From Longimicrobiales bacterium (GTDB lineage: Bacteria > Gemmatimonadota > Gemmatimonadetes > Longimicrobiales > Gaopeijiaceae): a stretch of DNA of 64,000 bases. Shown piece by piece: positions 37,690-64,000 of the stretch. The notes under the pieces are model-generated. The model was not told the DNA's origin. It saw only the letters and a program-made list of their open reading frames with translations, and searched no databases. The DNA is taken from assembly GCA_963422615.1 (NCBI GenBank), contig OY730414.1, forward strand, positions 2,340,302-2,404,301, given 5' to 3'. Both the position numbers and the translations under genes were made by a program. The stretch's first letter is position 1; the number at the start of each line of letters is the position of its first letter.

Positions 37690-40600
37690 TTGCTCTCGGA
37701 AGAACTGTCCGAACCCGTGACCGGACGGACGGACCGGGCAGTCGCCATTGCCCGAGATTTCTTCGGGATTGACGGGGAGGCCGTGGCCCTGCCCGGAGAA
37801 CTGGACCTGAACTTCCGGATTTCGGCACCCGAAGGGCCGGTCGTCCTGAAGCTGAGTCCAGAATCGCGCCGACCGCTCTTCGAAATGACCGCCGCCTGTC
37901 TGGGGCACATCTACGGCGCAACCCTGTCCGGGCAGATCCCGGGCCTGGTGTCCCCGGTTGCGACCATCGCTGGGTCTTCCGGGCTTGCGGCCACCCGGCA
38001 GGCGCGGCAGACCCGCAGACCCCCCTCCCCAATTGTGAACGTGGACTTCGAAGGCGTGCCCTTCGTTGCATCCGCGATTACCTACATCAAGGGGGTCCCG
38101 ATGGCGACGGTAAGCCCCCGGCGCATGGAGCTGCTGGAGGCGCTAGGCAGCTTCCTTGCCCAGCTCGACATGGCCCTGTCCGACTTCGACCATCCGGAGC
38201 TCGATCGCGCCTTCGGATGGCGAATGGAGTCGGCAGCGGAGGTCATTCGGGATCGCCCGGAAGGGCTCCCTGCCCCCCAGGCAGAGCTAACAGAAGCCAC
38301 TCTGGAGCGGGCACTTCAGCGATTCGGCCCGGACCGCGCCGACCTTCCGACTGGCGTCATCCACAACGACGCCAACGACTACAACGTGATCGTCATCCCG
38401 ACGCTGAACGGCCCCCGCCTGGCAGGCCTGATCGACTTCGGCGATGTCGTTCGGAGCTGGCGGATCGTCGAGCCCGCGGTGGCCGCAGCGTACGCCATGA
38501 TGGGTTTGGCGGATCCGGTGGCGGCGGCCTGCGCCATCGCGAAGGGGTACGCGTCGGTCACTCCTCTCCGAGGGCCCGAGTGCCGGGCCTTCATCCCCTT
38601 GGCCGCACTTCGGCTCTGCCTTTCGCTGTGCATCCAGTCCCGACAGATTCGACAGCAGCCGGAAAACGAGTACCTGGCGGTGAGCCAGCGGCCTGCGTGG
38701 AGGCTCCTTCAAGCCCTGGCCGACATCGATTGGCGGATCGCCGAGTTCAGGATCCGCGAAGCCTGCGGCCTCCCGCCCAATCCTCGTTGCCACGCCGTCA
38801 CTTCCTGGCTCCGCCGCGCCCAACCCCGGGCATCCCTTCTGGCCCCCGCTCGCCTTGCCCGGCCCCGCGTCATCGACTTGTCGGTGGAAAGCCCGGATTC
38901 GCCCCAACCGGCTGGGTGGACAGGGGAAGACCCAGCCGCGCGCACCGTCCAGAAACGCCCTGACGGCGCTCGGGGCGACCCGGCGTTTTCGGATGGTTTC
39001 TGCGAGGACACCGGCCCTTGGGCGGGCTGGATCGGGGCTCTTCTCCTTCCCGGAGCGACGGTTGGCGTGGGGCGATACGGGGAAGCCCGGCTATTGTACG
39101 ATGCGCCCGGCTTCGTGGGCGAAGGGAACGACGGTCCCGAAGCGCGCACCGTCCATCTGGGGGTGGACCTGTTTGCGCCGGCGGGTACCGCCGTATACGC
39201 CCCCCTGCCAGGGGCCGTTCTCTCCGTGGCCAATAACACCCGGCCTCTGGACTACGGACCGACCGTGATTCTCCGCCACACCACCGGTGACGGCACCGGA
39301 TTCCACACGCTGTACGGCCACCTGAACGAAGCTTCTCTGCACCACCTGGTGCCGGGCCAGCGGGTGGAAGCGGGGGAGATCGTCGGCTGGCTCGGAGTTG
39401 CTTCGGTCAACGGAGGGTGGCCTCCCCACCTTCACTTCCAGGTCATGGCTCTGGATCCCCTTTACGACGTCGATTCGGGATCCCCCCAGGGAAGGGACGA
39501 TGCACGCCCCTGGACTACCGAAGGCACGGGCGCAAGAGATGCGGGCAACTTCCCCGCCGTCGTCCTTCCCCGTCTTCGCGCGGTCTGGGAGTCCGTCCTT
39601 CCCGACCCGAGCCCACTCGTCGGCTTTTCCGAAGCGGCCGCCCAGTCTCTCCGACCCCTTTCAGATCCCGACGCCGTTACCGCCCGGATTCGGTTGCTGC
39701 GTAAATCGCATTTGCCTCCGTCTCTCAGCCTGTCTTATGCAACACCCGTTCACGTCGTGCGCGGCTCCGGTCCGTACCTCTTCGACAGGGAGGGCTGCCG
39801 CTATCTGGACACTGTGAACAACGTCGCCCACGTGGGACACGCGAACCCGCGGGTCACCCGCGCGATCGTCCGCCAGTCCCGCGTTCTCAACACCAATACC
39901 CGGTACCTTCACGAAGAGATTGTTGCCCTGGCCGAAGCCCTGCTGGCGCACTTCCCCGCTCCCCTGGACGTCGTCTACTTGGTGTGCTCCGGCAGCGAAG
40001 CCAACGAACTGGCGCTGCGGCTGGCTCGCTGTCATACGGGGAACGACGGCGTGGTCGTCCTCGAAGGGGGATATCACGGGAACACCGGAGGGCTCGTGGA
40101 AGTCAGCCCCTACAAGTTCGACGGACCCGGCGGGGCCGGGGCGAGCCCCCGAGTGGCGGTCGCCCCCATGCCGGATCCATACCGGGGGCGGCACCGGAGG
40201 AACGAAGGAGGAACGGGAACGGAAGAGGAGCTGGGAACGCTCTACGCCCGAGAAGCGATAAGGGCAACGGAACGGCTGGCCGACCCCGGGGTCGCGGCCT
40301 TCGTCGCCGAACCCATCCTGGGCTGTGGAGGACAGATCGAGCCTCCCGCCGGTTACCTGAAGGCGGTGTACCGGTACATCCGAGGTGTAGGCGGAGTCTG
40401 CGTGGCCGATGAAGTCCAGACCGGGTTTGGGAGGACGGGAGACGCTTTCTGGGCATTCGAACTTCAGGGCGTTGTGCCCGACATCGTGACCCTGGGCAAA
40501 CCCATGGGGAACGGCCACCCGGTAGGCGCCGTGGTGACGAACCGGGAGATCGCCGATTCCTTCGCCAACGGCATGGAATACTTCAACACTTTCGGCGGAA

Positions 40601-40983
40601 ACCCCGTTTCCTGCGCCGCGGCTCGGGCCGTCCTCTCGGAGATTCGGGACCGGGACTTGCGGGAGCGGGCTCGAAAGGTTGGCGGCGACCTCCTTGGCAT
40701 GCTGGGGCAATTGGCAAAGGACCGACCCGTTGTAGGCGACGTGCGGGGCCGGGGGATGTTTCTGGGCATCGAACTCGTCCGGGATCCCGCCGCCCGGGCG
40801 CCCTTTCCAGAGGCCTGCACCTACGTAGTCGAACGAATGCGGGAAAGAGGGATTTTCACCAGCGCGGACGGACTTGACCGAAACGTCCTCAAGTTCAAGC
40901 CGCCCCTGGTGTTCGGCGAAGACGACGCCCTCCGCTTCGTCGAAACCCTGGATGCCATCCTCGCAGAGACCGCTCTGGAGTGA
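37690..40983 (+). CDS. Fusion of phosphotransferase (APH/kinase-like), M23 peptidase-like and class III aminotransferase domains
   Basis: IHNDANDYN and IDFGD; HLGVDL, YGHL and PPHLHFQ; SGSEANELA, DEVQTGFGR, TLGKPMGNG. Confidence 0.9.
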   Translation: MLSEELSEPVTGRTDRAVAIARDFFGIDGEAVALPGELDLNFRISAPEGPVVLKLSPESRRPLFEMTAACLGHIYGATLSGQIPGLVSPVATIAGSSGLAATRQARQTRRPPSPIVNVDFEGVPFVASAITYIKGVPMATVSPRRMELLEALGSFLAQLDMALSDFDHPELDRAFGWRMESAAEVIRDRPEGLPAPQAELTEATLERALQRFGPDRADLPTGVIHNDANDYNVIVIPTLNGPRLAGLIDFGDVVRSWRIVEPAVAAAYAMMGLADPVAAACAIAKGYASVTPLRGPECRAFIPLAALRLCLSLCIQSRQIRQQPENEYLAVSQRPAWRLLQALADIDWRIAEFRIREACGLPPNPRCHAVTSWLRRAQPRASLLAPARLARPRVIDLSVESPDSPQPAGWTGEDPAARTVQKRPDGARGDPAFSDGFCEDTGPWAGWIGALLLPGATVGVGRYGEARLLYDAPGFVGEGNDGPEARTVHLGVDLFAPAGTAVYAPLPGAVLSVANNTRPLDYGPTVILRHTTGDGTGFHTLYGHLNEASLHHLVPGQRVEAGEIVGWLGVASVNGGWPPHLHFQVMALDPLYDVDSGSPQGRDDARPWTTEGTGARDAGNFPAVVLPRLRAVWESVLPDPSPLVGFSEAAAQSLRPLSDPDAVTARIRLLRKSHLPPSLSLSYATPVHVVRGSGPYLFDREGCRYLDTVNNVAHVGHANPRVTRAIVRQSRVLNTNTRYLHEEIVALAEALLAHFPAPLDVVYLVCSGSEANELALRLARCHTGNDGVVVLEGGYHGNTGGLVEVSPYKFDGPGGAGASPRVAVAPMPDPYRGRHRRNEGGTGTEEELGTLYAREAIRATERLADPGVAAFVAEPILGCGGQIEPPAGYLKAVYRYIRGVGGVCVADEVQTGFGRTGDAFWAFELQGVVPDIVTLGKPMGNGHPVGAVVTNREIADSFANGMEYFNTFGGNPVSCAAARAVLSEIRDRDLRERARKVGGDLLGMLGQLAKDRPVVGDVRGRGMFLGIELVRDPAARAPFPEACTYVVERMRERGIFTSADGLDRNVLKFKPPLVFGEDDALRFVETLDAILAETALE

Positions 40984-43168: not shown

Positions 43169-43548
43169 GGCCCTCTTGGGGTCGAGAATCTAGGCCGGCG
43201 CCCTGCCCCGATGCAAAGCTAATGGAACTCCGGTTCAAGTCCGGCTTCTCTCCGGGGCCGGCGCCAGGCACCCGGGGGGACAGCGCTCAGGCAGCGCCCT
43301 CCCAAGCCCCCCGAAATCCTGGGGCGCACCCGCCGATACGGATCGAATCGGGACCCGGACCCCGGGCACGTGCTCTGGACCCGGGACCCAACCGGGTGTA
43401 ATGATGGTGGGGGTCGTATCGCCACCCGAAACCCATATACGGGTCTCAAGCGTATCGGATTGACGAGCGTCCCAGGCTCTGCAATCGTCCGGCTCGGAGC
43501 CCCATTTTGAGGCCCCTGAAAAATCTTCTGAAGAGCGAGGTGTGGATC

Positions 43549-45939
43549 GTGAAAAAGTCCTTTCGAATTCTGGCCCTTCCGCTTCTTTCCGGGCTGCTCG
43601 CCACTGTCGCGGGCACTTCGCCAGCCACCGCCCAGGGTTACGGAGCGTCCGCCGCCGTGGGAGCCGAAGATGTCCTGGTAGGCGAATCCCTGAACGAGCG
43701 GGCTCCGGGATACGTGTATGTTTACCGCAAGGGCGATGGGGGCTGGAGCCAAGTCCAGCGGCTGGCCGCTTCCGATGCCGTTATCGGGGATCACTTCGGG
43801 CGCGCCCTCGGGATCGCAGGCGGCGACTTGCTGGTCGGATCCACCGTCATTGACGACACCCGGGGTGCCCTGTACGTCTTCAGAAGGGATGGTGACGGAA
43901 ACTGGGGCGAAGTACAGAAAGTCGTTGCAGGAGACGGAGCCGCAGGCGACGCCTTCGGAAGGACCATCGCCGCAGCGGACGATATTGCCTTGGTGGCCGC
44001 CTGGGGATCCGGGGAGTCCCGGGGCGCCGTGTACGTATTCGCCCGGGGTGAAACCGGGGAGTGGACGGAAGAGGCAAGGCTTGCCGCCGACGACGGAGAG
44101 CCGAACGACATGTTCGGCTTCTCTTTGGCAACAGACGGCGAATATGCCCTCGTCGGCACGCCGCGAAAGAACGAAAGACGAGGCGCGGTTTATGCCTTTC
44201 GGAGGGAGGCCGACAGAAGCTGGACCGACATCGGACGGATCAACATGGAGGAAGCCGAAAGTAACACGGACTTCGGCTTTGCCTTAGCCGTTCGCCACGG
44301 TATGGCCATGATCGGCGCTCCCGGGGAGGACCTATCCATTGGCGCCGTCCGCAGTTATCTGCTTGATGAGCCCTCGGGGGAGTGGCGACCGGACGCCCTG
44401 CACCGGCCTTTCGACGGTCGGCCCGGGACCCGTTTCGGGACGACCATTCGTCATACCGACCTCCAAGTCTGGATCGGAGCCCCCGGAGCCGCGGGGTTCG
44501 AGGGACGCTCGTACGTTCTGTCGTGGGACGAAGACGGCGGGGAATGGGGGAACTTGGCAAAGTTCGCAGCGGTCGACCTGACCCGGGGTGATGGGATGGG
44601 GCAGGTGATTGCGCTGGGAGAGGGCTTCGGGGTCGCGGGACTCCAGGGAGACGACTTCGGTGCCGGAACCGCCCTGATTCTGGAGGAGGATGGCGGAGTC
44701 TGGAGGACCGCCGTCAAGGTGGCGAGCGAAGTCACTCCCCTTGAAGCCATTACCGGCAGCGAAGTGGCGTGCGAAGACGGCCAAGCCAACGAATTCACCT
44801 GTACCGACGTCGATATCGTTTCCTTTCTTCCCGTACAGGCAATCGGCGGAAGCCGCGGGGTTGAAGTCAATGACGTCTGGGGTTGGACAGACCCGGTGAC
44901 GGGAACGGAGTGGGCCCTGGTCGGACGCTACGACGGCACGTCCTTCATTGACCTGAGTGATCCGGCAAATCCGGTGTACGCAGGCGACCTGCCCCTCACG
45001 GAAGGCGCGAGACCGAGCGTATGGCGGGACATCAAGGTGTACCGGGACCATGCGTTCATCGTAGCCGACGGGGCCAACGAACACGGAATGCAGGTCTTTG
45101 ATCTGACCCAACTCCGGGATCCGAGGAATGGCCCCGTCACCTTCCAAGCGACGGCTCTGTACGACAGAATTCACAGTGCCCACAATATCGTGATCAACGA
45201 AGAAACCGGCTTTGCATACGCGGTGGGCAGCAGCGGCGGGGGCAATACGTGTGGCGGGGGTCTCCACATGATCGACATTCGAGATCCCGTCGGCCCCGTC
45301 TTCGTCGGGTGCTTCACCGACCCGTCCAGGATCCACAACCGCCTCCGGGGATACAGCCACGACGCCATGTGCGTCAACTACAGGGGCCCCGACTCCGAGC
45401 ACCAGGGTAAAGAAATCTGCTTCGGTTCCAACGAGAAGGCGATCAGCATCGCCGACGTGTCGGACAAGGATGCCCCCGTTGCGCTAGCGACGGAGAGCTA
45501 TCCTGGCGTGGCCTACTCCCACCAGGGATGGATCGACGAGAATCACGAGTACTTCTATACGAACGACGAGCTGGACGAGCTGGAGGGCACGGTTGCCGGC
45601 ACCCGCACTTTGGTGTGGGATGTGAAGGATCTGGACGATCCGATTTTGGTGAAACAGTACGTCTCCGAAAACCAGTCCTCCGATCACAACCTTTACATCC
45701 TGGGCGACCGCATGTACCAGTCCAACTACGTGAGCGGCCTACGGATCCTGGACATCTCGGACCGTGAAAACCCCGAGGAAGTCGCCTACTTCGATACGGT
45801 GCCGTGGACTGAAGACGCCCCCGGCTTTGACGGCTCGTGGAGCAACTACCCCTATTTCAGGAGCGGAATTATCGTCGTGACCTCGGGCAAGGAAGGCGTG
45901 TTCTTCTTGAGAAACGTAAGAAGGGAACTGATTCCCTGA
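43549..45939 (+). CDS. Choice-of-anchor B family protein with N-terminal FG-GAP-like repeats (copy 1)
   Basis: Signal peptide; FG..../GAP/GAVYVF repeats; NDVWGWTDP, WRDIKVY, AHNIVINE, YSHDA, YSHQGW, NDELDE, DHN, WSNYPYF. Confidence 0.88.
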   Translation: MKKSFRILALPLLSGLLATVAGTSPATAQGYGASAAVGAEDVLVGESLNERAPGYVYVYRKGDGGWSQVQRLAASDAVIGDHFGRALGIAGGDLLVGSTVIDDTRGALYVFRRDGDGNWGEVQKVVAGDGAAGDAFGRTIAAADDIALVAAWGSGESRGAVYVFARGETGEWTEEARLAADDGEPNDMFGFSLATDGEYALVGTPRKNERRGAVYAFRREADRSWTDIGRINMEEAESNTDFGFALAVRHGMAMIGAPGEDLSIGAVRSYLLDEPSGEWRPDALHRPFDGRPGTRFGTTIRHTDLQVWIGAPGAAGFEGRSYVLSWDEDGGEWGNLAKFAAVDLTRGDGMGQVIALGEGFGVAGLQGDDFGAGTALILEEDGGVWRTAVKVASEVTPLEAITGSEVACEDGQANEFTCTDVDIVSFLPVQAIGGSRGVEVNDVWGWTDPVTGTEWALVGRYDGTSFIDLSDPANPVYAGDLPLTEGARPSVWRDIKVYRDHAFIVADGANEHGMQVFDLTQLRDPRNGPVTFQATALYDRIHSAHNIVINEETGFAYAVGSSGGGNTCGGGLHMIDIRDPVGPVFVGCFTDPSRIHNRLRGYSHDAMCVNYRGPDSEHQGKEICFGSNEKAISIADVSDKDAPVALATESYPGVAYSHQGWIDENHEYFYTNDELDELEGTVAGTRTLVWDVKDLDDPILVKQYVSENQSSDHNLYILGDRMYQSNYVSGLRILDISDRENPEEVAYFDTVPWTEDAPGFDGSWSNYPYFRSGIIVVTSGKEGVFFLRNVRRELIP

Positions 45940-46055
45940 GCGGATAAGCGGTCGTGCTCGCCGCACTGCTGGCCCCCCAGTATGCGGTGGTGTACAATTC
46001 GGACCGAAACCCCAGCCAAATTTTCCCCACTGGCCCGAAAACTCAGGACTTGACA

Positions 46056-48506
46056 ATGCTCCCTAGCCCCGGATTGACCTTCGCTTTCGCCGCGTCCCTC
46101 CTTTTTGCCCCCCTTGAGGCGGGCGCCCAGAGCACGCCCGCCTCTTCCCCACCCCTCTCCCTTCCGGCCGGAGTCTCGGCGTTCGCCTCGGCCGTTACTG
46201 TGGAGGGCGGCGAGGTTTTCGTGGGCCGACCCGGAGGCGTGGATTTCTTCCCCATGCCGCCCAATCGGCCGGGAGGCGTCCACGTATTCACCCAATCGGG
46301 CGGTGCATGGTCCCAGACAGCCTTGGTTTCTCCGCCGGACGCCGAAGTGGGAACAGGCTACGGCACAAGTTTGGATGTCCAGGGCGATCTGATGGTGGTC
46401 GGAGCACCCGGAGAGGGGGCTGGAGCTGTCTACGTTTACCGGCGGACCGACGGGGCATGGACCCTCCAGGAACGCATCACATGGGAAGGGGCGGTTGCGG
46501 ACGCCCGTTTTGGGGCCGCGGTAGCCACCAACGGGACCGAAATTCTTGCAGGCGCCCCGGGAGCGGACAACGGCAACGGGGCCGTCGTCTTGCTCGCGGA
46601 CGGTGAAGCAGGCTGGGAGAGATCCCAGGTTCTCACGGCAGGGGGCAGCAACGAATCCGCCCGGGGTAGTGCCTTTGGTACCTCCCTGGACGTGGAGGAC
46701 GGGCTGGCCGCCATCGGGGCTCCCGGCGGCGACATCTCCTTGATTCCCGGCCCTGACCAGCCCTCTCTGATGCCCGGGTCCGTCTACGTCTTCACCCGGG
46801 AAGCCGACACCTGGTCCCAGGCCGCGCACTTGGCACCTCCCGGGAACGAACCCGCTTCCATGGGCCGGAGTGTCCAGGTATCCGAGGGCAGCATCTTCGC
46901 CGGGGCGCCCCTCGCCCAACAGGCCAGCGGCGCCGTGTATCAGTTCGAGAAGGACGACGGGGAATGGACCCTCGCAAACACCCTCCAGCCGGACTCCCCC
47001 GCTCCCGCCTCGTTTTTTGGGCTGGCGCTGGCTGTCTCCGGAGAAGATGTGGTGGCGGGCCTCCCTCTGGCCGGAGGGGGCACGGGAGGCGGTTTTGCTT
47101 TTCGTCGAAATGAATCGGGCGGCTGGAGGGAGGTTGCCGATTTCGGGCCCGGAGGACCCTTCAACTTCTACGGCCTGGCCGTGGCCGTCGGAGAAGAGGT
47201 CGCGGTGGTAGGAGCGCCGGGGGCCGACTTCTTCGAAGGAACGGGGCACATCTTCCGTCGCACTCCAGAGGGGTGGGAGCCCCAGGGAGCCATTATCGAC
47301 GACAACACCGGGATGGAAGCGGTGGTTGGAGAAGAACGGGAATGCGAAGAAGGCCAGGCGGGCGGCTTCGACTGCAGCGAAGTCAACTTGGTTTCCTTCT
47401 TGCCCGTCCGAGAGTTGGGTGGCGCACGGGGCGTGGTTGCCAACGACCTTTGGGGATGGACAGACCCGGAATCGGGGCGGGAGTACGCAATCGTGGGACG
47501 GACAGACGCCACGACCTTCGTCGACCTCACGAATCCGGGGAGCCCGGTCTACCTGGGTGAGTTGCCCCTCACCGAGGGGGCCACGCCGAATCTGTGGCGG
47601 GACATCAAGGTCTACGACAACCATGCGTTCATCGTTGCCGACAACGCGGGAGCCCATGGCGTTCAGGTATTTGACTTGACCCGCCTCCGGGATGTGACGG
47701 CGCCGCCCGTGACCTTCGAAGCTGACACCCGGTACGACGGCATCAGCTCGGCCCACAACATCGTGATCAACGAAGCGACGGGGTTTGCCTATGTGGTCGG
47801 CGCGTCGGGGGGCGGAGAAACATGCGGGGGCGGCCTCCACATGATCGACATCCGGGACCCGAAGAACCCGATGTTCTCGGGGTGTTTTTCGGATCCTGCG
47901 ACCGGAAACGCCGGCACCGGCTACAGCCACGACGCCCAGTGCGTCCGGTACCACGGCCCCGACGAGGCGTACCAGGACCGTGAAATCTGTTTCGGTGCCA
48001 ATGAAGACGCCCTGTCGATCGCCGACGTGACGGACAAGAGCGCTCCCGTGGTCCTCTCGTCTGCGGAGTACCCCAACACCGGATATCTTCACCAGGGGTG
48101 GGTCAGCGAAGATCACCGCTACTTCTACATGAACGACGAAACGGACGAACTGGCCGGAAACGTCTCCCGGACCCGGACCCTGATCTGGGACATACAGGTT
48201 CTGGAAGATCCCATGCTCGTCAAGCAACACTTCGGCACGACGGCATCTTCGGACCACAACCTGTATGTCCTTGGGGACTACATGTACCAAGCCAACTATG
48301 TGAGCGGACTGCGGGTTCTGGACATCTCCAATCCAGAGGAGCCGGAAGAAGTCGGCTTCTTTGACACGGTCTCTGCCGGGAACGATGGGCCCGGCTTCGC
48401 CGGAGCGTGGAGCGTGTACCCCTACTTCGAGAGCGGGCTGATCATCGTCTCAAGCATGCGGGAAGGCCTCTTCGTGCTCAAGAAGCGCCCGCCCCGGGTG
48501 TCCTAG
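46056..48506 (+). CDS. Choice-of-anchor B family protein with N-terminal FG-GAP-like repeats (copy 2)
   Basis: Same architecture and motifs as 43549..45939; tandem paralogue. Confidence 0.88.
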   Translation: MLPSPGLTFAFAASLLFAPLEAGAQSTPASSPPLSLPAGVSAFASAVTVEGGEVFVGRPGGVDFFPMPPNRPGGVHVFTQSGGAWSQTALVSPPDAEVGTGYGTSLDVQGDLMVVGAPGEGAGAVYVYRRTDGAWTLQERITWEGAVADARFGAAVATNGTEILAGAPGADNGNGAVVLLADGEAGWERSQVLTAGGSNESARGSAFGTSLDVEDGLAAIGAPGGDISLIPGPDQPSLMPGSVYVFTREADTWSQAAHLAPPGNEPASMGRSVQVSEGSIFAGAPLAQQASGAVYQFEKDDGEWTLANTLQPDSPAPASFFGLALAVSGEDVVAGLPLAGGGTGGGFAFRRNESGGWREVADFGPGGPFNFYGLAVAVGEEVAVVGAPGADFFEGTGHIFRRTPEGWEPQGAIIDDNTGMEAVVGEERECEEGQAGGFDCSEVNLVSFLPVRELGGARGVVANDLWGWTDPESGREYAIVGRTDATTFVDLTNPGSPVYLGELPLTEGATPNLWRDIKVYDNHAFIVADNAGAHGVQVFDLTRLRDVTAPPVTFEADTRYDGISSAHNIVINEATGFAYVVGASGGGETCGGGLHMIDIRDPKNPMFSGCFSDPATGNAGTGYSHDAQCVRYHGPDEAYQDREICFGANEDALSIADVTDKSAPVVLSSAEYPNTGYLHQGWVSEDHRYFYMNDETDELAGNVSRTRTLIWDIQVLEDPMLVKQHFGTTASSDHNLYVLGDYMYQANYVSGLRVLDISNPEEPEEVGFFDTVSAGNDGPGFAGAWSVYPYFESGLIIVSSMREGLFVLKKRPPRVS

Positions 48507-55398: not shown

Positions 55399-55730
55399 GT
55401 CAATGCGGCCTGGGGATGGCGGCGGGGAGGCGCCGGATGAGGAGGACGGGATGCCCGGTCCGGCCAGGGACGACAGATCCGGACCTTGAAAGCGCTTTCT
55501 GACTGCTCGGGCCGTTCCCATCATCCGGTCACCCCGGACGGACAATGGGGTGGACCTGCTGCCGGGACCTCCAAGGTGGCGTCAAGCGGGAGAGGATTAG
55601 GAGTCAGAGGCCCGGGGGACCACTAGACACCGCGAGCTTGATGGCGAAGCCATCGAAACCGGCGAGGATATGCGCCGTCCTGGGTCCGGCCCTCCACCCG
55701 ATATCCGTTGGAAAACCGTGTGGACGCCAA
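55399..55730. repeat. Repeat copy A: downstream region plus degenerate 3' end of gene 59476..60591
   Basis: Shares long blocks (ggacctccaaggtgg, aggagtcagag, gacaccgcgagcttga, cgttggaaaaccgtgtggacgccaa) with 57801-58107 and 59377-59607. Confidence 0.85.
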
Positions 55731-55787
55731 TAGGTCAATCGGATCTACCTTTCTTGACATCCGAGCCCGGATAGCGATCTTTCGGTC

Positions 55788-56023
55788 GTCTCGTCCATAC
55801 CGCCGCGTCGGGCACACTGACCGCTCTGCTTCAAGCCCCGCTGGAGGATTGGCCGGACACCCACCATCTCACCTCCATATAAGGAGATCCATCATGAACC
55901 GCTTCGTCTCGTCCATACCGCCGCGTCGGGCACACTGACCGCTCTGCTTCAAGCCCCGCTGGAGGATTGGCCGGACACCCACCATCTCACCTCCATATAA
56001 GGAGATCCATCATGAACCGCTTC
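55788..56023 (+). repeat. Exact 118-bp tandem duplication of the peptide gene leader, RBS and first codons
   Basis: 55788..55905 equals 55906..56023; a diverged third copy lies at 58115..58226. Confidence 0.92.
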
Positions 56024-56236
56024 ACTAACCAAGCATCCACATCCAACCGGCGGGTCGTCCTCTCCCGCAGCGTTATGGTCGGCGCCATCGCGCTTGCGCT
56101 CGCTTTCGTCTGGGGCTCGTCTTCGAGCGCCCAGCCCAGTGTCTCCCAAGGCATCTGCGACGACTGGGGCTGCCATTCCGGCGAGGAGAAGTGCATGACC
56201 GTCGGGCCGGTCACCTGCTGGGACCACAGGCACTAG
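56012..56236 (+). CDS. Secreted Cys-rich small peptide precursor (74 aa, 4 Cys)
   Basis: TAAGGAG RBS; MNRFTNQASTSNRRVVLSRSVMVGAIALALAFVWGSSSSA|QPSVSQGICDDWGCHSGEEKCMTVGPVTCWDHRH*; TAGTG-coupled to the next gene. Confidence 0.8.
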   Translation: MNRFTNQASTSNRRVVLSRSVMVGAIALALAFVWGSSSSAQPSVSQGICDDWGCHSGEEKCMTVGPVTCWDHRH

Positions 56237-56724
56237 TGCGAAGTGCTGCGTTGCCCGGCACAACCGGGCTTGCTGTACTCGGTACGCTGATCGTCATCGG
56301 CGCCGTGGGCATGGGGCGGGCAAATCCCGCCCCATCGCCCTTGGCGTCTCTCTTGACTTCCGAGGACCCAGGGTTTCTTGATTTCACGTTGGTCTTTCGA
56401 CCGCTCGATTGTCAGCTACCGATCGAGATCATTGAGGAACTGAACGAACTGGCGAGCGCGGAAGCCGTTACGGTTCGAGGAATCATGATTGGTCCAATCC
56501 CCGAAGGAGACGACCTCGATATCCTGCTACGAGGACTCGGCGTAACGTTCCCAGTCGTGGAAGATGCCGACGGCTACTGGTCCGATGCCTTGATCCGAGA
56601 ATCGATACCCAACCCAACCCTGTTCATCTACAAGCGTGGTTTGCGTTATGTCTCGATCAGCCTTGAGGGCCTGCGAACACTCAAGCGCTATCTGCCCAGA
56701 ACGGGGAGGGCCGTCGGTGGTTAG
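56236..56724 (+). CDS. Membrane-anchored thioredoxin/redoxin-fold protein (single Cys)
   Basis: N-terminal TM/signal; LVFRPLDCQLP, VTFPVVEDADG, IPNPTLFIY resemble the TlpA/AhpC-TSA layout. Confidence 0.65.
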   Translation: MRSAALPGTTGLAVLGTLIVIGAVGMGRANPAPSPLASLLTSEDPGFLDFTLVFRPLDCQLPIEIIEELNELASAEAVTVRGIMIGPIPEGDDLDILLRGLGVTFPVVEDADGYWSDALIRESIPNPTLFIYKRGLRYVSISLEGLRTLKRYLPRTGRAVGG

Positions 56725-57733
56725 TGCGGTGGGGCGTGGAGTTCTCGTTCTGACAGCCCTGCTGCTGGCTTCCTTTAATTCTCCTCGGCTATCCGGCCAA
56801 GTTGCCCGCACATGGGTGGAGCCAACCGGCAGTCGCGTACTCGTCGCAGGACAAATGGATTCTTTCCTTCTTCAGCCAAGCTCGGTCGACATGGGTCGCA
56901 ACATCGTCGTCTTGTTTGACAGGGGTGACGAGTCTCTGAAGGCTGTTGACCGCGCCACGGGCCGGTTACAGTGGGAGCTAGGACGTTCCGGTCAAGGTCC
57001 ATGGGAGTTCGCGGGCGTGACCGATATCGCGATGGGACCGGCAGATTCGGTCTGGGTGCTTGATGCCGAAAACCGGCGTGTCTACATCGTCGGACCTGAC
57101 GGCTCTCAGGGCCGGGTAATCAATATTGCACTTGCCCTGGCAGCATCGGAAGCTCCCTACCGGATGGCCGTGCTTCCCGATGGTTTTGTGCTCGGTCTGA
57201 GCAGTACGGATAACGGTTTGGCGGCTGTGTTTTCGGCTGACGGACAGCGTCGTGCCATGGTCAGAGGACCGCCGTGGATAGAGGATCTGACTTACATGGC
57301 GGCTGATTACCGCTTGGATGGTGATCCCAAGTCAGGGAGCTTCGCTGCGGTATTTCAGTTCACTGGCAGGATTCTGGATGGCAGACCGGGAAGCGGATCG
57401 CCAGACGTACAGGAGCTGGAAGCAGTCGTGATGGCTGACGAGCCCGAAATCATCCATTTTGAGATTGACGGCATGGCAGCCTCCCGGTTGGCGCCCGGAC
57501 AAGTGAGACTGGCACGCAGTATAGCGGTGGAGGGAGACCGCATTATGATCCTGTCGGCACGGCAGTCGGACGATGAATGGGTGGCAGACGTAATCGACGT
57601 CTACGAGAACCGTGACTACCTGTACAGCATTCGCCTACCTGCGGTCGCTAGACGAATCGCTGCGTTCGGTAACACCATTACCACTCTCGAAACCGAAATG
57701 TTGCCCACGATCCGCGAACTGATATTGCCGTAG
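56717..57733 (+). CDS. Secreted 6-bladed beta-propeller protein
   Basis: Signal peptide; LGRSGQGPWEF, VWVLDAENRRV, IDVY...YLYSIRLP. Confidence 0.8.
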   Translation: MVSAVGRGVLVLTALLLASFNSPRLSGQVARTWVEPTGSRVLVAGQMDSFLLQPSSVDMGRNIVVLFDRGDESLKAVDRATGRLQWELGRSGQGPWEFAGVTDIAMGPADSVWVLDAENRRVYIVGPDGSQGRVINIALALAASEAPYRMAVLPDGFVLGLSSTDNGLAAVFSADGQRRAMVRGPPWIEDLTYMAADYRLDGDPKSGSFAAVFQFTGRILDGRPGSGSPDVQELEAVVMADEPEIIHFEIDGMAASRLAPGQVRLARSIAVEGDRIMILSARQSDDEWVADVIDVYENRDYLYSIRLPAVARRIAAFGNTITTLETEMLPTIRELILP

Positions 57734-57800
57734 AGAAGCTCTGTCTTGCCCGAGCCGTGCCGAGCCGAAGTTGTTGGAGCGGCGATGCTTGAGGTCTCTC

Positions 57801-58107
57801 GTCAATGCGGGGCTGGGGATGGCGGCGGGGAGGCGCCGGATGAGGATGCCCGGTCCGGCCAGACGGCCAGGCCAGGACGACAGATCCGGACCTTTGAAGG
57901 CGCTTTCTGGCTGGTCGGGCCGTTCCCATCATCCGGTCGGTCACGGTCACCCCGGGGGGTGGAATGGGGTCAACCCGCTGCCGGAACCTCCGCTGTGGAG
58001 GAGGTCCCAGGACCTCCAAGGTGGTTTCAAGCGGGAGAGGATTTAGGAGTCAGAGTCCCGGGGACCAACGGACACCGCGAGCTTGACTGCGAAGCCATCG
58101 AAATCGG
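57801..58107. repeat. Repeat copy B (between cassette 1 and its duplicate)
   Basis: Homologous to 55399-55660 and 59377-59540. Confidence 0.85.
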
Positions 58108-58310
58108 TCACCTTGTCCATATCGTCGCGTCGGGCACACTGACCGCTCTGCTTCGAGCTCCGCTGGAGGATTGGCCGGACACCCACCATCTTACCTCCAT
58201 AAAGGAGATCCATCATGAACCGCTTCCCTCACTGCGTTATGCCTTGGATCAGCCTTGAGGGCCTGCGAAAACACTCAAGCGCGATCTGCCCAGAACGGGG
58301 AGGGCCGTCG

Positions 58311-59327
58311 GTGGTTAGGGCGGTGGGGCGTGGAGTTCTCGTTCTGACAGCCCTGCTGCTGGCTTCCTTTCATTCTCCTCGGCTATCCGGCCAAGTTGCC
58401 CGCACATGGGTGGAGCCTACTGGCAGTCGCGTACTCGTCGCAGGACAAATGGATTCCTTCCTTCTTCAGCCAAGCTCGGTTGACATGGGTCGCAACATCG
58501 TCGTCTTGTTTGACAGGGGTGACGAGTCTCTGAAGGCTGTTGACCGTGCCACGGGCCGGTTACAGTGGGAGCTAGGACGTTCCGGTCAAGGTCCATGGGA
58601 GTTCGCGGGCGTAACCGATATCGCGATGGGACCGGCAAATTCGGTCTGGGTGCTTGATGCCGACAATCGGCGTGTCTACATCGTCGGACCGGACGGCTCT
58701 CATGGCCGGGTAATCAATATTGTACTTGCCCTGGCAGCATCGGAAGCTCCCTACCGGATGGCCGTGCTTCCCGATGGATTTGTGCTCGGTCTGAGCAGCA
58801 CGGATAACGGCTTGGCGGCTGTGTTTTCGGCTGACTGACAGCGTCGTGCCACGGTCAGAGGACCGCCGTGGATAGGGAATCTGAGTTACATGGCGGCTGA
58901 TTACCGCTTGGATGGTGATGCCAAGTCAGGGAGCTTCGCTGCGGTATTTCAGTTCACTGGCAGGATTCTGGATGGCAGACCGGGAAGCGGCTCACCGGAC
59001 GTACAGGAGCTGGAAGCAGTCGCGATGGCTGACGAGCCCGAAGTCATCCATTTTGAGATCGACGGCATGGCAGCCTCCCGATTGGCGCCCGGACAAGTGA
59101 GACTGGCACGCAGTATAGCGGTAGAGGGAGACCGCATTATGATCCTGTCGGCACGGCAGTCGGACGATGAATGGGTGGCAGACGTAATTGACGTCTACGA
59201 GAACCGTGACTACCTGTACAGCATTCGCCTACCTGCGGTCGCTAGACGAATCGCTGCGTTCGGTAACACCATTACCACTCTCGAAACCGAAATGCTGCCC
59301 ACGATCCGCGAGCTGATATTGCCGTAA
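58311..59327 (+). pseudogene. Duplicate of beta-propeller gene 56717..57733 with a premature stop
   Basis: Same 1017-nt length and near-identical sequence; GGA changed to TGA at 58836-58838. Confidence 0.88.
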
Positions 59328-59475
59328 GAGAAGCTCTGTCTTGCCCGAGCCCGAGTTGTTGGAACGGCGATGCTTGATCCGGTCACCCCGGACGGACGAT
59401 GGGGTGGACCCGCTGCCGGAACCTCGGCTGTTGGGGGTCCCAGGACCTCCAAGGTGGTTTCAAGCGGGAGAGGAT

Positions 59476-60591
59476 TTAGGAGTCAGAGTCCCGGGGACCA
59501 ACGGACACCGCGAGCTTGACTGCGAAGCCATTGAAATCGGCCAGATACCCCCCGTCTTGGGATCGGCCCCAAACGTCATACCCGTTGGAAAACCGTGTGG
59601 ACGCCAAAAGGTCGCCTTCCGGCGTGACCACCGTCCAAAGACCTTCCGGACGGCCGCGGCGACTGGAATACAAGTGGGCTACGTTCAAAATATTCCCGTC
59701 TGGCATCTCGTCCACGAAAATGGATCGGTTCCATCGGAATTGGAAGGTCACGCGGGGCTCTTCCGGGGCCAGGGCCCGAATCAGTTCGGAAGACGAAATA
59801 ATGTCCTCGTTTTCAACCACCAGGACCGGTTTGTCGCCGTCCATCCCGAGGTACCGGGTAACTCGAAACGGGGCTACGTCCGAAACGAGCAAATCTCCCA
59901 TTGCGGTCAATGCGACCGGACCCCCGGACAACCGCCGGGTCGCCAGCCAGTCTTTGTGCTCAAACACAGGATGCCAGCTGGCGACGTGGTTTCCGCCCCG
60001 ATCGTACCGATGGACGGAGTACTGACTGAAGGGTTGCGACGGATACTTGCCCCCGCTCACGACGAATCCACCATCCGAGAGCCCGGTAAACCCATACTGC
60101 CAGATTAGCGGCAGATTCACATGATGCCCGAACTTCTTATCGACCGTTGCCACATCCACGCCTTCACCTGAACCGCCGACAATCAAAGCGCCGAAACCGG
60201 GAGCCATGGACAAGTGCATGATACTTTCGATCCTGTTTGAAATATCGGCGCTCCACGATATGGTTTTCGGTCGACTCCCGTCGGACCGTAGTTCCCACAA
60301 CTCAACGTTCCTGCCGTCGGCCACCCAGATGCTTCCATCGGGCCATTCGGCCATCCCGCCAACCGAACCGAAGCGCGGGTCAATATTTGTCCTCCAGATT
60401 TCACGGATGCGAACCCCCAGCGGACCTTCCTCCTCAAGTGGGGTCTCCGGCTGAGCTTCTCGGACCAGAACCGTATCTCGATCGCATCCACCGACCAACA
60501 ATGCCGATCCTACAGTGATAGCAATCGTTTGAAGATACAGCAGCTTCACAAGTCTCATTCTGGAGGCAAGCCGACCTATTCCTTGAAACAT
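59476..60591 (-). CDS. Beta-propeller-like lipoprotein
   Basis: Lipobox-like VGGC; repeated blades (DGSIWVADG, DGGFVVSG, GDLLVSD, DGNILNV); GGAG before ATG at 60591. Confidence 0.72.
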   Translation of the reverse strand: MFQGIGRLASRMRLVKLLYLQTIAITVGSALLVGGCDRDTVLVREAQPETPLEEEGPLGVRIREIWRTNIDPRFGSVGGMAEWPDGSIWVADGRNVELWELRSDGSRPKTISWSADISNRIESIMHLSMAPGFGALIVGGSGEGVDVATVDKKFGHHVNLPLIWQYGFTGLSDGGFVVSGGKYPSQPFSQYSVHRYDRGGNHVASWHPVFEHKDWLATRRLSGGPVALTAMGDLLVSDVAPFRVTRYLGMDGDKPVLVVENEDIISSSELIRALAPEEPRVTFQFRWNRSIFVDEMPDGNILNVAHLYSSRRGRPEGLWTVVTPEGDLLASTRFSNGYDVWGRSQDGGYLADFNGFAVKLAVSVGPRDSDS

Positions 60592-60619
60592 TTTCCGACT
60601 CCCTTTGCCAGAGCAAGAT

Positions 60620-61240
60620 CTATTGAGTTGCCGGTAACACCATGCCGGATTCGACCCACTCTCTGATTTCAACAAGGCCGACCCTCCGAGTCAGTACTCG
60701 TTCGTCTAGAATCAACCGCTGTTTTCCCCTGATCTCAACCGTCCGTTCCACGATAAGAATCTGCGGAGTCGCAGCAGGACCGGGCAGGTCGTGGAAGATG
60801 TATCTCATTACACCGATGTTGAACCAACCCCTTCCCGCCATGATTTCGTCGAAATCACCGAAGGTGGCCAAATGCTCAATGCCTTTGCTCGCGATGACAT
60901 CTCTGGCGACCCCGACTGCAGCAAATCCCAAGCCCCGCGATCGTGCACCATCGCGAATGGCCAACTTGGCTTGACGAACAAGCTTACGAAGCTCAGGACG
61001 ATTGGACCAGTGACATTGTGACGAACCCACGAGAATGAATACCAATTCTTCACCTGAATCCGTTCTGGCATCGGGTAGGTACGGGTCAGAGGAAGAAAGT
61101 ATGGGAATACTCCAACGAATGTCGACGTCTATGTCAGCTCTAGGAACAAATCCGAACAGGCCTAGGGCAAACCCCAAACCCAGAACAAGCCAAACCCGGC
61201 CATTCCTTCCATAACCTCGGAGTCTCCGAATTCCAAACAT
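60620..61240 (-). CDS. Membrane-anchored thioredoxin-fold protein with an SxxC/CxxS site
   Basis: TM helix; ELVFILVGSSQCHWS; cis-Pro-like ATPQILIV. Confidence 0.65.
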   Translation of the reverse strand: MFGIRRLRGYGRNGRVWLVLGLGFALGLFGFVPRADIDVDIRWSIPILSSSDPYLPDARTDSGEELVFILVGSSQCHWSNRPELRKLVRQAKLAIRDGARSRGLGFAAVGVARDVIASKGIEHLATFGDFDEIMAGRGWFNIGVMRYIFHDLPGPAATPQILIVERTVEIRGKQRLILDERVLTRRVGLVEIREWVESGMVLPATQ

Positions 61241-62416
61241 TCAGGCTCCTCCCTTTGGAGCAATGGTTCGCAGTTCCAACTTTGGATACGGCAACATCCA
61301 CATGGCCACTTGTCGGCTTGCATCCGCAGCAACAATTATAGGCAGCGTTTCACTTATCAAAGCTCCCAGCCCTGTCGCTACATCAATCAGGTAGCTTCTA
61401 ACTATGATATCAGAGCTACCCTTTTGAATCTCTGATGGTTCTCCACGAAGGTACTGCACCAAAACATGCCGAGAAGAAACAGCCTGCACAGAAGACAATA
61501 CGTCTCGTACTCCACTTGACGAAAACCGAACAGATGGCTGACCGTCGGAAGACGAGCTTTCCGTAATTTTAAGTTGAGCGTATCCCTCAATACCAGCGGC
61601 CCAGGCGAGTGCACCTCCGTCGGCTTCGTAGGCTCGGAGCACGGGAAGCAGTTCAAATGCGAATACAATGTGGAGGGGGTCGCCTAGACAAGCTATGCGA
61701 CCATCGGACAGTTGGCCTTGAACGAGCCAGTTATCCGAATCGTATCCGTGTCCGAAGCTGTGATCCGTCTGGCCAGGCACAACAGCAACTTCGTGAATAA
61801 TCGTGTTATCGGAACGCAACCAGCCCGCGACGAAAACCCGTTCCCGGTTGGAACATACTCCCTCGGGAACAAGTAGAAGTTGAACGGTATATTCGTGTTC
61901 GTAACTGGTATTTCCGGTATCGGTGGGAGAAAAAATCTTGAGCTCGTTTCCCCGGTCGGACACGGCTACGCGACCCTCTCTCATGAGTTCCAATCCACTA
62001 GGATCATGGAACTCGTTCGGCCCCGGTCCCGAACGCCCGAACGCACCAAGAAACTCTCCTTGAAAGTCGAATATCCGCACCTGACGATTCCGTCTGTCAA
62101 GCACATATACATTTCCGTCTTTATCCAACTTGACATCAGAAATCAACCCAAAAACTTGCGGGTCTTCGCCACCGGAACTGCCAAGCCGGCCAATCTGCAC
62201 CACCGGTTGTGCCTCAAGCAAGGCACCCCGGACCTGTACCCAATCGGACAAAGCGCTCGGAGTCAGTCCCTCCGGAATCGAATCTTTCCGGACGCTGAAG
62301 CCACTCCGGGATGGTGTGTTTTCGTGCGTTGGATGGACGATCTCATTCCGCTGTTGCTCGCAGGATCCGAGAACTCCGCAAGCGATTACCGTGGCAACGA
62401 TCCGCTGGGCACCCAC
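61241..62416 (-). CDS. 6-bladed beta-propeller lipoprotein (NHL/TolB-like)
   Basis: Lipobox LGSC; FGLISDVKLDKDGNVYVLD, FGRSGPGPNEFHDP; GGAGG upstream. Confidence 0.82.
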   Translation of the reverse strand: MGAQRIVATVIACGVLGSCEQQRNEIVHPTHENTPSRSGFSVRKDSIPEGLTPSALSDWVQVRGALLEAQPVVQIGRLGSSGGEDPQVFGLISDVKLDKDGNVYVLDRRNRQVRIFDFQGEFLGAFGRSGPGPNEFHDPSGLELMREGRVAVSDRGNELKIFSPTDTGNTSYEHEYTVQLLLVPEGVCSNRERVFVAGWLRSDNTIIHEVAVVPGQTDHSFGHGYDSDNWLVQGQLSDGRIACLGDPLHIVFAFELLPVLRAYEADGGALAWAAGIEGYAQLKITESSSSDGQPSVRFSSSGVRDVLSSVQAVSSRHVLVQYLRGEPSEIQKGSSDIIVRSYLIDVATGLGALISETLPIIVAADASRQVAMWMLPYPKLELRTIAPKGGA

Positions 62417-62544
62417 TTCCTAACCCTCCATGAACGGGTTTCGCCTCCCGGCCTCTCCGGGAACGGCGCCGACAGCACACACCCTGCCGTGCCAAGTATT
62501 GAGGTCACGTCTCATGACAGGGCTTGGCTAACAACAGCATGTGT

Positions 62545-62794
62545 CTATTTGTGACCGCAGGCGCTAGTTGTGCAACCATCTTGGCCTGCCCTGCAGGCGG
62601 TCAGTTCTCCGGGATTGTCCTCGCAGCGTTCCCAGAAAATCAGGAAGCTATCGCACTCGTTTGATTCGCAGTCATGGGCTACCGTCGGGGCAGGAGCGAC
62701 CAAAGACGGATGCGGCCGATCCGACCAGCCCGCCTATCGCCACCGGGACGAGGAACCCCAAGAGGATCCCTCGCACGCGTCGTTTGATTGTCAT
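62545..62794 (-). CDS. Secreted Cys-rich peptide precursor (6 Cys) with a 1-nt frameshift; absent from the ORF track
   Basis: AAGGAG RBS; MTIKRRVRGILLGFLVPVAIGGLVGSAASV, then a shift near 62701-62704 into VAPAPTVA|HDCESNECDSFLIFWERCEDNPGELTACRAGQDGCTTSACGHK*; span is 250 nt (3n+1). Confidence 0.72.
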
Positions 62795-63038
62795 CGGCTA
62801 TCTCCTTAAGAGAAAGTATTGGAAAATGGGGAAGTTCAAGCGCCGCACTTTAATGCGGCTGATGTAGAGACGCTCCCTCTGTGCTCCGGCGATGGGTCAG
62901 AATCGGACAGAACGTCCAAGACAGCGCTTACCAGGGCCGAATCAACTTTGGCATCGGAGGGATGCGCTCAAGAGATTACGAGGAGGCAGGGGACGTGGCA
63001 GACTCGTTCCGGCGGGACATGGTGTCAGGATTAAACCG

Positions 63039-63845
63039 TCATGACGCGGAGGTAGAGGCCGGACTTGTGATTTTCCCGAGGATGACGGACGCCACGTAGT
63101 CCGGCCCACCCCGCCGAACGATCACGGAAGGGGGCTGACCCAGTTCACGCCGAACCGAACGCCGATAGTTGGCGTAGTCGGAAAAGCCGAGTGCCAGGGC
63201 GACGGCGCCCGACGGTCGGCCGCTCCACTTGGCCAGCCTTTCCACGTGGAAGATCCGTGCGAGTGAGATGAGCCTCTTGGGCGGCGGCACTTCGCTGGCC
63301 ACACACCGCCTTCTCAAGGTCCGAACGCTGATGCCGAGACTTCGGGCTAGCTGATCAACCGAACACGGGGTGACGGTTTCGCGGAAAACGAACTCCAGAA
63401 GCGTGTTTGTGGAGACAGGAGTAGCGCGTTTCAGGCACTCCACCAGAGCGCGAACTTCCCTGTTGCCCGTGCCGCGGAGCGCGGCGGATCCGACCGCACT
63501 CAGACGGTCGTTGGCACCGGGATCCAGGCGCTCCACGAAGACGACATCCGTTTCCGCAAGTTGCCAAAGTTGGGCCGTGTTCAAGTCCGCATAGCAGATG
63601 ACAGAGCACTGGGGACACTCACGGCGAAACGAAAGGAAGGCCCCCAGAGAGGTGCCGCCGGAAGGGAAAAAGGGATCCACGAAGGTCGGCGAACAGGGGA
63701 ACCGCCCGACCAGCGTCCGGAGGTCCCGCCAAGCCGACGCAAAGCGAACGGGGCCAAGAAGCTCGTGAGCGCCACCTACACGTACCCCTGCCCGGATCCG
63801 GTCCCGAATTCTCGGACTGCCTTCGAGCGCGAGCACAGCAATCAT
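63039..63845 (-). CDS. AraC-family HTH transcriptional regulator
   Basis: SVDQLARSLGISVRTLRRR...VALALGFSDYANYRR..RRELG. Confidence 0.85.
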   Translation of the reverse strand: MIAVLALEGSPRIRDRIRAGVRVGGAHELLGPVRFASAWRDLRTLVGRFPCSPTFVDPFFPSGGTSLGAFLSFRRECPQCSVICYADLNTAQLWQLAETDVVFVERLDPGANDRLSAVGSAALRGTGNREVRALVECLKRATPVSTNTLLEFVFRETVTPCSVDQLARSLGISVRTLRRRCVASEVPPPKRLISLARIFHVERLAKWSGRPSGAVALALGFSDYANYRRSVRRELGQPPSVIVRRGGPDYVASVILGKITSPASTSAS

Positions 63846-63854
63846 CGAACGGCT

Positions 63855-64000
63855 TCAGTCGGTGTCCACCATCAGTTCCATCACTTCGTCCATTTTTCCG
63901 AGCTTGCGGCACGCTCGGTGAATCAGGGAGCGGACGGCCGTGTCCGTCACCCCCATCGTACGTGCGATCTCCCGCGTCGTCCGCTGCTCCATGTACATAC
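63855..64000 (-). CDS. Sigma-70 family (probably ECF) sigma factor, C-terminal region 4, partial at the window edge
   Basis: Manual translation ...MYMEQRTTREIARTMGVTDTAVRSLIHRACRKLGKMDEVMELMVDTD*. Confidence 0.7.
   Translation of the reverse strand, partial: MYMEQRTTREIARTMGVTDTAVRSLIHRACRKLGKMDEVMELMVDTD

Follow-up and report, generated by a model that had tools for sequence, protein, structure and literature searches.

A 64,000-nucleotide stretch of a Longimicrobiales genome (phylum Gemmatimonadota; GenBank assembly GCA_963422615.1, contig OY730414.1), taken from 2340302-2404301 of a genome assembled as one contig (2.57 Mb, 64.2% GC) and hereafter called the window, ends in two convergent cassettes in which genes for a small exported Cys-rich protein, a membrane-anchored redoxin-like protein and one or two propeller proteins stand side by side. 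The cassette type is real and conserved, is made of familiar parts and is apparently undescribed; the literature searched for NVEALA, DUF5128, and six-bladed and NHL propellers contained, in its titles and abstracts, no description of a peptide-propeller-redoxin trio. According to the reading preferred here, to which a probability of about 0.5 is given, the genes specify a conserved envelope set composed of an exported Cys-rich mini-protein, one or two NHL-type propellers and a one-Cys redoxin-like protein, the redoxin likely rearranging disulfides and the propeller likely binding the mini-protein.

The minus-strand cassette, on which most of the evidence bears, follows the order sigma, AraC, pepB, propB1, redB, propB2; apart from the peptide gene, this is the succession that an earlier note, made from the letters alone, had given, and both the open reading frames (ORFs) and the domain matches bear it out. 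Its features are the following.

63855-64000, minus strand: 3' end of a gene for a sigma factor of the extracytoplasmic function (ECF) type (Sigma70_r4_2 at 9.9e-9).

63039-63845, minus strand: AraC-type regulator of 268 aa (Pfam HTH_18 at 1.6e-12).

62545-62794, minus strand: pepB, a split gene for a six-Cys peptide (sequence, ORFs and a profile built from other genomes).

61241-62416, minus strand: propB1, an NHL-type six-bladed propeller lipoprotein of 391 aa (Pfam NHL and DUF5128).

60620-61240, minus strand: redB, a membrane-anchored protein of 206 aa with a predicted thioredoxin fold (AlphaFold2 (AF2), Foldseek, VIA).

59476-60675, minus strand: propB2, a second, putative propeller lipoprotein (ORF, hhalign).

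Secretion signals, lipoboxes and membrane anchors, here and throughout, were assigned by eye and without a dedicated predictor, aided in the case of redB by the helix that the AF2 model places at residues 13-28.

The recurrence of this arrangement was surveyed in a sample of 401 genomes across the phylum, 62 of which contain relatives of redB, frequently in several copies. Of 31 distinct redB loci compared (20 long ones with 6-kb flanks and 11 further short ones), 27 have a propB-type propeller directly beside redB (18/20 long, 9/11 short). For the peptides, a profile was built from 21 Cys domains of 12 loci, all from other genomes; it matches 15 of the 20 long loci, including three (L035, L040, and L042) which supplied no training sequence, so that most of the neighbourhoods of redoxin and propeller homologues carry the peptide ORFs that the earlier note expected there. 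When the same profile was searched against the 46,759 stop-to-stop frames of the present genome, its six top matches (E 1.2e-6 to 0.024) all fell at the four propB1-redB cassettes of that genome, namely the one in the window and those at 425 kb, 1718 kb, and 2472 kb; since the neighbourhoods of the cassettes make up less than 1% of the genome, chance would seem to be excluded as a source of this result. The idea that the pepB-type peptides are chance ORFs is rejected on the strength of this own-genome search. The three parts are a conserved and co-inherited unit, well beyond chance. The full order peptide-propB1-redB-propB2 is found in L034, L037, and L038, and L036 has propB1-redB-propB2 with no peptide detected. 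Moreover, the pairwise identities of the parts co-vary among 11 cassettes, both for peptide versus propeller (Mantel rho 0.46, p 0.003) and for propeller versus redoxin (rho 0.78, p 0.0002).

The pepB-type peptides come from short ORFs that carry a signal and show the Cys spacing C-x4-C ... C ... C ... C-x4-C, and the six Cys are the sole invariant columns in the alignment of all 22 sequences. The family comprises 61 clusters among 1.84 billion representatives, its members being mostly 60-117 aa long with the Cys domain at the C-terminus; none of the 22 domains matches NVEALA (PF14055; threshold E <= 1 or 0.1 for these domains and for pepA and pepB) or, meaningfully, any other Pfam family. Several peptides may stand in tandem at one locus, as in L049 (four) and L045 (three).

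Some variants on this theme were also observed. In L033 (4455-5882), a single case, one continuous frame encodes, as a fusion, a signal, a form of the domain with 4 Cys and a propB1-type propeller devoid of a lipobox. In L034 (4760-6814) the propB1 and redB homologues share one open frame of 684 aa with no stop between them; that this is a true fusion is doubtful, since redB's own Met and membrane segment are found at the junction. A further family of proteins of about 240 aa combines a membrane anchor and the same six-Cys domain, here N-terminal, with a second domain, some 150 aa long and of no known family; their genes, placed straight after redB-type genes, occur in the present genome (427096-427824 and 2474456-2475181), in L031 (3026-3742) and in L035 (7705-8415).

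Concerning the redoxin, redB carries the motif CHWS, with one cysteine rather than the CxxC pair, and a TPQ loop. Its AF2 model, with a predicted local distance difference test score (pLDDT) of 81.2, matches TlpA/ResA/DsbE proteins in Foldseek (4.8e-4 for 3fkf) and, in VIA, a tryparedoxin (Z 8.4, root-mean-square deviation 3.4 over 120 residues) and CcmG (Z 7.8), these Z values being middling; thioredoxin-fold oxidoreductases account for 50 of the 50 structural matches listed. As modelled, redB has a thioredoxin fold; searched against Pfam and NCBIfam, it falls into no family at E <= 0.1. Within the redB family the first active-site Cys is kept in 30/30 sequences, the motif being CxxS in 22, CxxC in four and something else in the other four, and the CxxC forms are located on deep branches of the (unrooted) tree.

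The propeller propB1 exceeds the gathering score of NHL (PF01436; 32.8 bits versus a cutoff of 20) and that of DUF5128 (PF17170; 29.4 bits versus 22.9), although the latter match covers only model positions 44-98 of 321, that is, about two blades; DUF5128 is matched by 14 of the 22 members of the propB1 family (E <= 1e-3, best 1.4e-13). The protein displays a VLGSC lipobox and a conserved HP motif, as well as two Cys (C188 and C243) which are invariant in the alignment of the 22 sequences. Compared with the PDB, the profile of these 22 members retrieves the NHL domains of TRIM71, Thin, TRIM2, and Brat (5e-47 to 1e-18), followed by PAL (1.4e-6), by the Bacteroides-type exported protein 4raa (2e-6) and by SOQ1 (9e-4). 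The second propeller, propB2, scores 16.2 bits with NHL, under the cutoff of 20, and is recognised by the propB1 profile (hhalign probability 83%, E 9e-6), a profile-level similarity which marks it as a remote relative of propB1; its start is likely the ATG at 60591, which gives a lipobox LVGGC, and its orthologues occupy the matching position in L034, L036, L037, and L038.

Two known arrangements resemble this combination of parts. In Bacteroidota, six-bladed propeller lipoproteins of the DUF5128 family, still uncharacterised, have small proteins of the NVEALA family as neighbours; the literature searched yielded no paper on either family. The likeness lies in a propeller lipoprotein with a small exported protein encoded alongside; the differences are that the peptides described here match no Pfam family, NVEALA included (0/22), and that the DUF5128 match spans only about two blades of propB1. 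The link to the Bacteroidota pair named in the earlier note holds for the propeller, through the 14/22 DUF5128 matches, and fails for the peptides.

The other arrangement is that of SOQ1, in the thylakoid lumen of plants, and of NHLRC2, in animals, in which a thioredoxin-like domain is fused to a six-bladed NHL propeller. Here too a thioredoxin-like domain and an NHL propeller come together in an extracytoplasmic compartment; unlike SOQ1 and NHLRC2, however, the two are encoded by separate genes, the redoxin has one Cys, and the unit includes a dedicated gene for a Cys-rich mini-protein. It could accordingly be imagined that redoxin and NHL propeller form a split version of this module, acting as an envelope redox chaperone for which the mini-protein is just one client or regulator. 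The match of the propB1 profile to the NHL domain of SOQ1, the order redB-then-propB2, which parallels the thioredoxin-then-NHL order of NHLRC2, the two invariant Cys of propB1 and the fact that propeller and redoxin are mostly intact where the peptides have decayed (see below) all speak in its favour. On the other hand, the peptide is linked to the cassette as tightly as the propeller is, the active site is CxxS whereas SOQ1 and NHLRC2 have two-Cys motifs, and a search for longer forms recovered no fused relative of redB, which is weak evidence; on balance this explanation appears improbable.

In the preferred reading of a mini-protein folded and held by its own partners, the peptide would be exported by Sec and then cleaved, as suggested by AxA-type leader sites recognised by eye, and a pepB-type peptide would form three disulfides outside the cytoplasm. 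Of the active-site pair redB retains the attacking cysteine alone, so that its task would be to isomerise or edit disulfides through mixed disulfides, and not simply to oxidise or reduce; in enzymes of the thioredoxin family, variants with CxxS are no longer oxidases but can still isomerise. The lipoprotein propeller, finally, would hold the folded mini-protein at the membrane. If this is true, these bacteria maintain numerous private sets, each of which folds and binds a tiny disulfide-rich protein; a function could be assigned to DUF5128-type propellers and to one-Cys thioredoxin-like proteins, a bacterial and genetically split model would become available for the poorly understood thioredoxin-NHL pair of SOQ1 and NHLRC2, and a new source of stable disulfide-knotted peptides would be at hand.

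The plus-strand cassette presents a comparable set of genes and several traces of duplication.

56012-56236, plus strand: pepA, a 4-Cys precursor of 74 aa (ORF and sequence).

56236-56724, plus strand: redA, a membrane-anchored protein of 162 aa (start taken from the alignment of homologues).

56636-57733, plus strand: propA, an exported propeller-like protein, ORF of 365 aa (ORF, hhalign).

58215-59327, plus strand: propA2, an interrupted duplicate of propA (tblastn, DNA alignments, repeat families D1-D4).

55786-55903 and 55904-56021, plus strand: an exact tandem duplication of 118 bp (repeat family D2, 100% identity).

The pepA ORF is intact; its N-terminus is hydrophobic and resembles a signal, and the 4 Cys lie in the mature part (C-x4-C-x6-C-x7-C). 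The pepB-type peptide profile does not match pepA, and the Pfam scan gave no NVEALA (PF14055) match for either pepA or pepB. Its stop codon TAG overlaps the GTG start of redA in the sequence TAGTG, the start at 56236 having been set by an alignment of six sequences (five of them homologues) in a frame which is open from 56191; the 5' part of propA overlaps in turn the 3' end of redA, the true propA start being probably near 56714. A 4-Cys peptide, a membrane-anchored protein (the redoxin of the earlier note) and a propeller with overlapping starts and stops are present as that note described.

The redA protein is anchored in the membrane and conserves a single Cys, in the motif CQLP rather than CxxC, and its family is tiny (five clusters among 5.8 billion proteins). 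It belongs to no Pfam or NCBIfam family at E <= 0.1, its profile finds chance-level matches only among PDB sequences, the hhalign comparison of the redA and redB profiles is not significant, and its AF2 model (pLDDT 39.8) is unusable for a fold search; only by its language-model (ESM) features does it come close to clusters of AhpC/TSA and TlpA, with scores of 0.93-0.95. A thioredoxin-like fold for redA is possible, a lead only. Of the two non-CxxC thioredoxin-fold proteins claimed in the earlier note, redB is thus upheld by its model, its fold matches and its CHWS motif, and the fold of redA stays unconfirmed. As for propA, the Pfam scan returned only PQQ_2, below threshold, with NHL likewise under its cutoff; the propB1 family profile aligns with it at a hhalign probability of 89% (E 2.1e-6), and by this profile comparison propA is a remote relative of propB1. 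The two cassettes share a layout with little sequence similarity, just as had been noticed from the letters: propA is remote from propB1, redA and redB are not detectably related, and pepA lies outside the pepB profile. The trio pepA-redA-propA is kept in the same arrangement also in L051 and L052, with propA orthologues at 86% and 62% identity, respectively, and the pepA homologue of L052, 65.8% identical overall, is nearly identical by eye across the Cys-rich core.

The second plus-strand propeller gene, propA2, is 94% identical to propA and is broken by a nonsense change (GGA>TGA at 58836-58838), so that of the two plus-strand propeller genes only propA is intact; on the 5' side of propA2 the propeller follows directly upon a copy (78% identity) of the 5' region of pepA, pepA and redA being absent there, and its DUF5128 score is 13.8 bits, under the cutoff of 22.9. 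It is probably a pseudogene. A reading of this TGA as a coded residue was considered and rejected, the codon arising by a single G>T change and other genes being normal under table 11. The 118-bp tandem duplication, in turn, covers the start region of pepA (ribosome-binding site, ATG, first four codons), and its first copy yields an upstream ORF of 14 codons (55894-55938) directly before pepA. Furthermore, the cassette is flanked by a repeat unit of about 250-300 bp (55400-55740, 57800-58225, and 59330-59640) within which lies, on the minus strand, the 3' tail of a propB2-like gene; these repeats indicate a segmental duplication reaching from the end of propB2 over the promoter of pepA as far as propA.

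Contigs from the public runs X1, X2, X5, and X6 were available for comparison, X6 coming from another study and X1 being possibly the window's own source. Those of X6 span portions of both cassettes, and one of them contains the junction of the tandem duplication, as a loose contig end. Among the runs listed none is registered as RNA, and X6 is RNA by guess only, so its contigs speak neither for nor against expression.

The same contigs bear on pepB, which the earlier note had described as a 6-Cys peptide in a single ORF; this does not hold, the signal part (62672-62794, an ORF of 40 aa with an AAGGAG site in front) and the Cys domain (62545-62703) being in different frames, separated by a frameshift of 1 nt near 62703. 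The Cys domain is nonetheless the top match (E 1.2e-6) of the peptide profile built from other genomes. The X1 and X2 contigs (59502-64000) and an X6 contig (62416-62809) are identical to the letters of the window, X5 shows no indel, and intact pepB orthologues exist in other genomes (P0025 and P0031); the gene is thus truly frameshifted rather than affected by an assembly slip, the same letters occurring in the contigs of other runs and the intact orthologues elsewhere. Nothing was found in favour of the alternative that the break is a programmed frameshift.

Decay of the peptide is in fact common in this genome. Its four cassettes include just one whose pepB-type peptide gene is intact, that at 425 kb (peptide and propeller at 424937-426471); at 1718 kb the peptide gene has no signal part and the propeller contains an in-frame TGA, and at 2472 kb the peptide gene is reduced to a remnant of 28 codons. 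Propellers and redoxins remain open in the four cassettes, with the exception of the 1718-kb propeller. In GC content all rank low, no higher than the 0.4th percentile: the minus-strand cassette of the window has 55.2% GC versus the 64.2% of the genome, under 99.6% of 3-kb windows, in line with the AT-richness pointed out in the earlier note, and the 1718-kb cassette is the lowest-GC 3-kb stretch of the genome. The window also illustrates cassette turnover by tandem and segmental duplication, with low GC and inactivation of the peptide genes.

As to the role of such a set, the leading guess is that the peptide resembles a bacteriocin and that the propeller serves to bind it or to confer immunity, and decay directed at the peptide would lean toward a role of this kind. 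In its strict form, this explanation has the mini-protein act as a toxin on neighbouring bacteria, with the lipoprotein propeller as an immunity protein or neutralising binder and the redoxin as a folding helper. An antagonism/immunity pair is what best fits the patchy, multi-copy distribution (62/401 genomes, four cassettes in this one), the low GC of the cassettes, the tandem peptides of L049 and L045, the restriction of peptide conservation to the Cys residues and the loss of peptides beside mostly intact propellers and redoxins, reminiscent of orphan immunity genes. Against it, no outer-membrane exporter was found among the window ORFs, neither a killing activity nor a target is known, divergence is no greater among the peptides than among the propellers (mean pairwise identity 0.29 versus 0.31), and the Cys-rich core of the pepA homologue of L052 is nearly unchanged; as a full explanation of the cassettes it is therefore regarded as doubtful.

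A parallel is offered by the loci of bacteroidetocins (class IIf bacteriocins), which comprise a GG-leader peptide, a 5-TM protein (TM, transmembrane segment) and an ABC exporter that includes a peptidase domain (PMC6671954). There, a small Cys peptide likewise lies beside a dedicated thiol oxidoreductase needed for activity, a dependence which favours the antagonistic role; unlike the cassettes described here, those loci have no propeller, whereas here the leader is signal-peptide-like (AxA-type, by eye), one or two propellers are present and no such exporter is found. Indeed, neither the cassette genes nor 46 further ORFs of the window contain radical SAM, YcaO, LanM, MNIO or C39 domains at E <= 1e-6, which agrees with the absence, already stated in the earlier note, of enzymes for ribosomally synthesized and post-translationally modified peptides and of a C39 exporter. 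The antagonistic role can be extended to a broader and equally tentative proposal, namely that these genes represent a widespread and undescribed envelope class in which a Sec-exported, disulfide-knotted mini-protein is paired 1:1 with its own NHL propeller lipoprotein and a dedicated, thioredoxin-like one-Cys isomerase, as a polymorphic toxin-immunity or recognition pair, horizontally traded and decaying peptide first.

Returning to the preferred reading, that of a conserved envelope set in which the redoxin edits the disulfides of the mini-protein and the propeller binds it, several points weigh against it. The propeller is absent at four of the 31 redB loci, and no peptide is detectable by the profile at five of the 20 long ones; co-varying identities of the cassette parts are to be expected from shared descent alone. 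Binding by the propeller and catalysis by the redoxin are putative, and the attribution of one logic to both cassettes rests on their layout, homology between redA and redB being undetected and the fold of redA unconfirmed. A redoxin with CxxS might just as well bind without any redox activity, and redB might have its true client in the invariant Cys pair of propB1. Moreover, an outer-membrane export route is not evident within the window, and three of the four pepB-type peptide genes of this genome are broken or truncated, so that the set may no longer work here.

The regulatory genes upstream of pepB bring in another comparison. Reading beyond position 64000, a step proposed in the earlier note, completes the sigma gene, which encodes 196 aa and reaches window coordinate 64445, past the window end; sigma homologues are found near cassettes in five loci (L003, L041, L034, L038, and L031), and in L003 the sigma-AraC pair, too, is beside the cassette. 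Promoter and terminator scans gave site numbers no higher than in shuffled sequence. In the AraC regulator HTH_18 is C-terminal and the N-terminal part matches no known family; its best NCBIfam match is QhpR, although at 34.9 bits, far under the cutoff of 250. This match, together with a layout which resembles mauA/mauB/mauD, could hint at an enzyme similar to methylamine dehydrogenase, in which a Cys-rich small subunit is bound by a propeller subunit and the thioredoxin-like protein is a maturation factor of the MauD kind; the mau cluster likewise has genes for a small disulfide-rich exported subunit, for its propeller partner and for a maturation factor that is thioredoxin-like and anchored in the membrane. 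Apart from this, the comparison fails in sequence: redA and redB have no match to NCBIfam MauD at E <= 0.1, MauE is absent among the window ORFs scanned, and MauG was not matched in the NCBIfam and window ORF scans either. In addition, only the Cys are conserved in the peptide, so that there is no Trp to form the quinone cofactor, the propeller is of the six-bladed NHL type and no electron acceptor gene is nearby; such an enzyme is highly unlikely.

TonB-receptor-like genes (CarboxypepD_reg and Plug, about 780 aa) were observed within the cassettes of four relatives, namely L032 (6787-10082), L040 (1606-4727 and 7953-10208), L041 (6606-8954), and L042; in L032, L040, and L042 an unknown, conserved protein of about 290 aa is encoded beside the receptor-like gene, and the peptides of L040 and L042 bear acidic tails rich in Gly, Asp, and Glu. 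The receptor-like genes (two of them in L040), the ECF sigma genes near cassettes at five loci and the His found at some peptide C-termini would be compatible with a metal-binding or nutrient-capture peptide taken up by a TonB-dependent receptor, under ECF sigma control like that of cell-surface signalling. The receptor, however, is present at only four of the 20 long loci and not in the window, the C-terminal His is not conserved and no anti-sigma gene was recognised, which leaves this as the least likely of the explanations weighed.

Elsewhere in the window, a 1097-aa ORF (37690-40983) shows an unusual fusion of phosphotransferase (APH), Peptidase_M23 and class-III aminotransferase domains, and two adjacent proteins of 810 aa and 850 aa (43507-48506) contain FG-GAP repeats, accompanied in the second by an LVIVD repeat.

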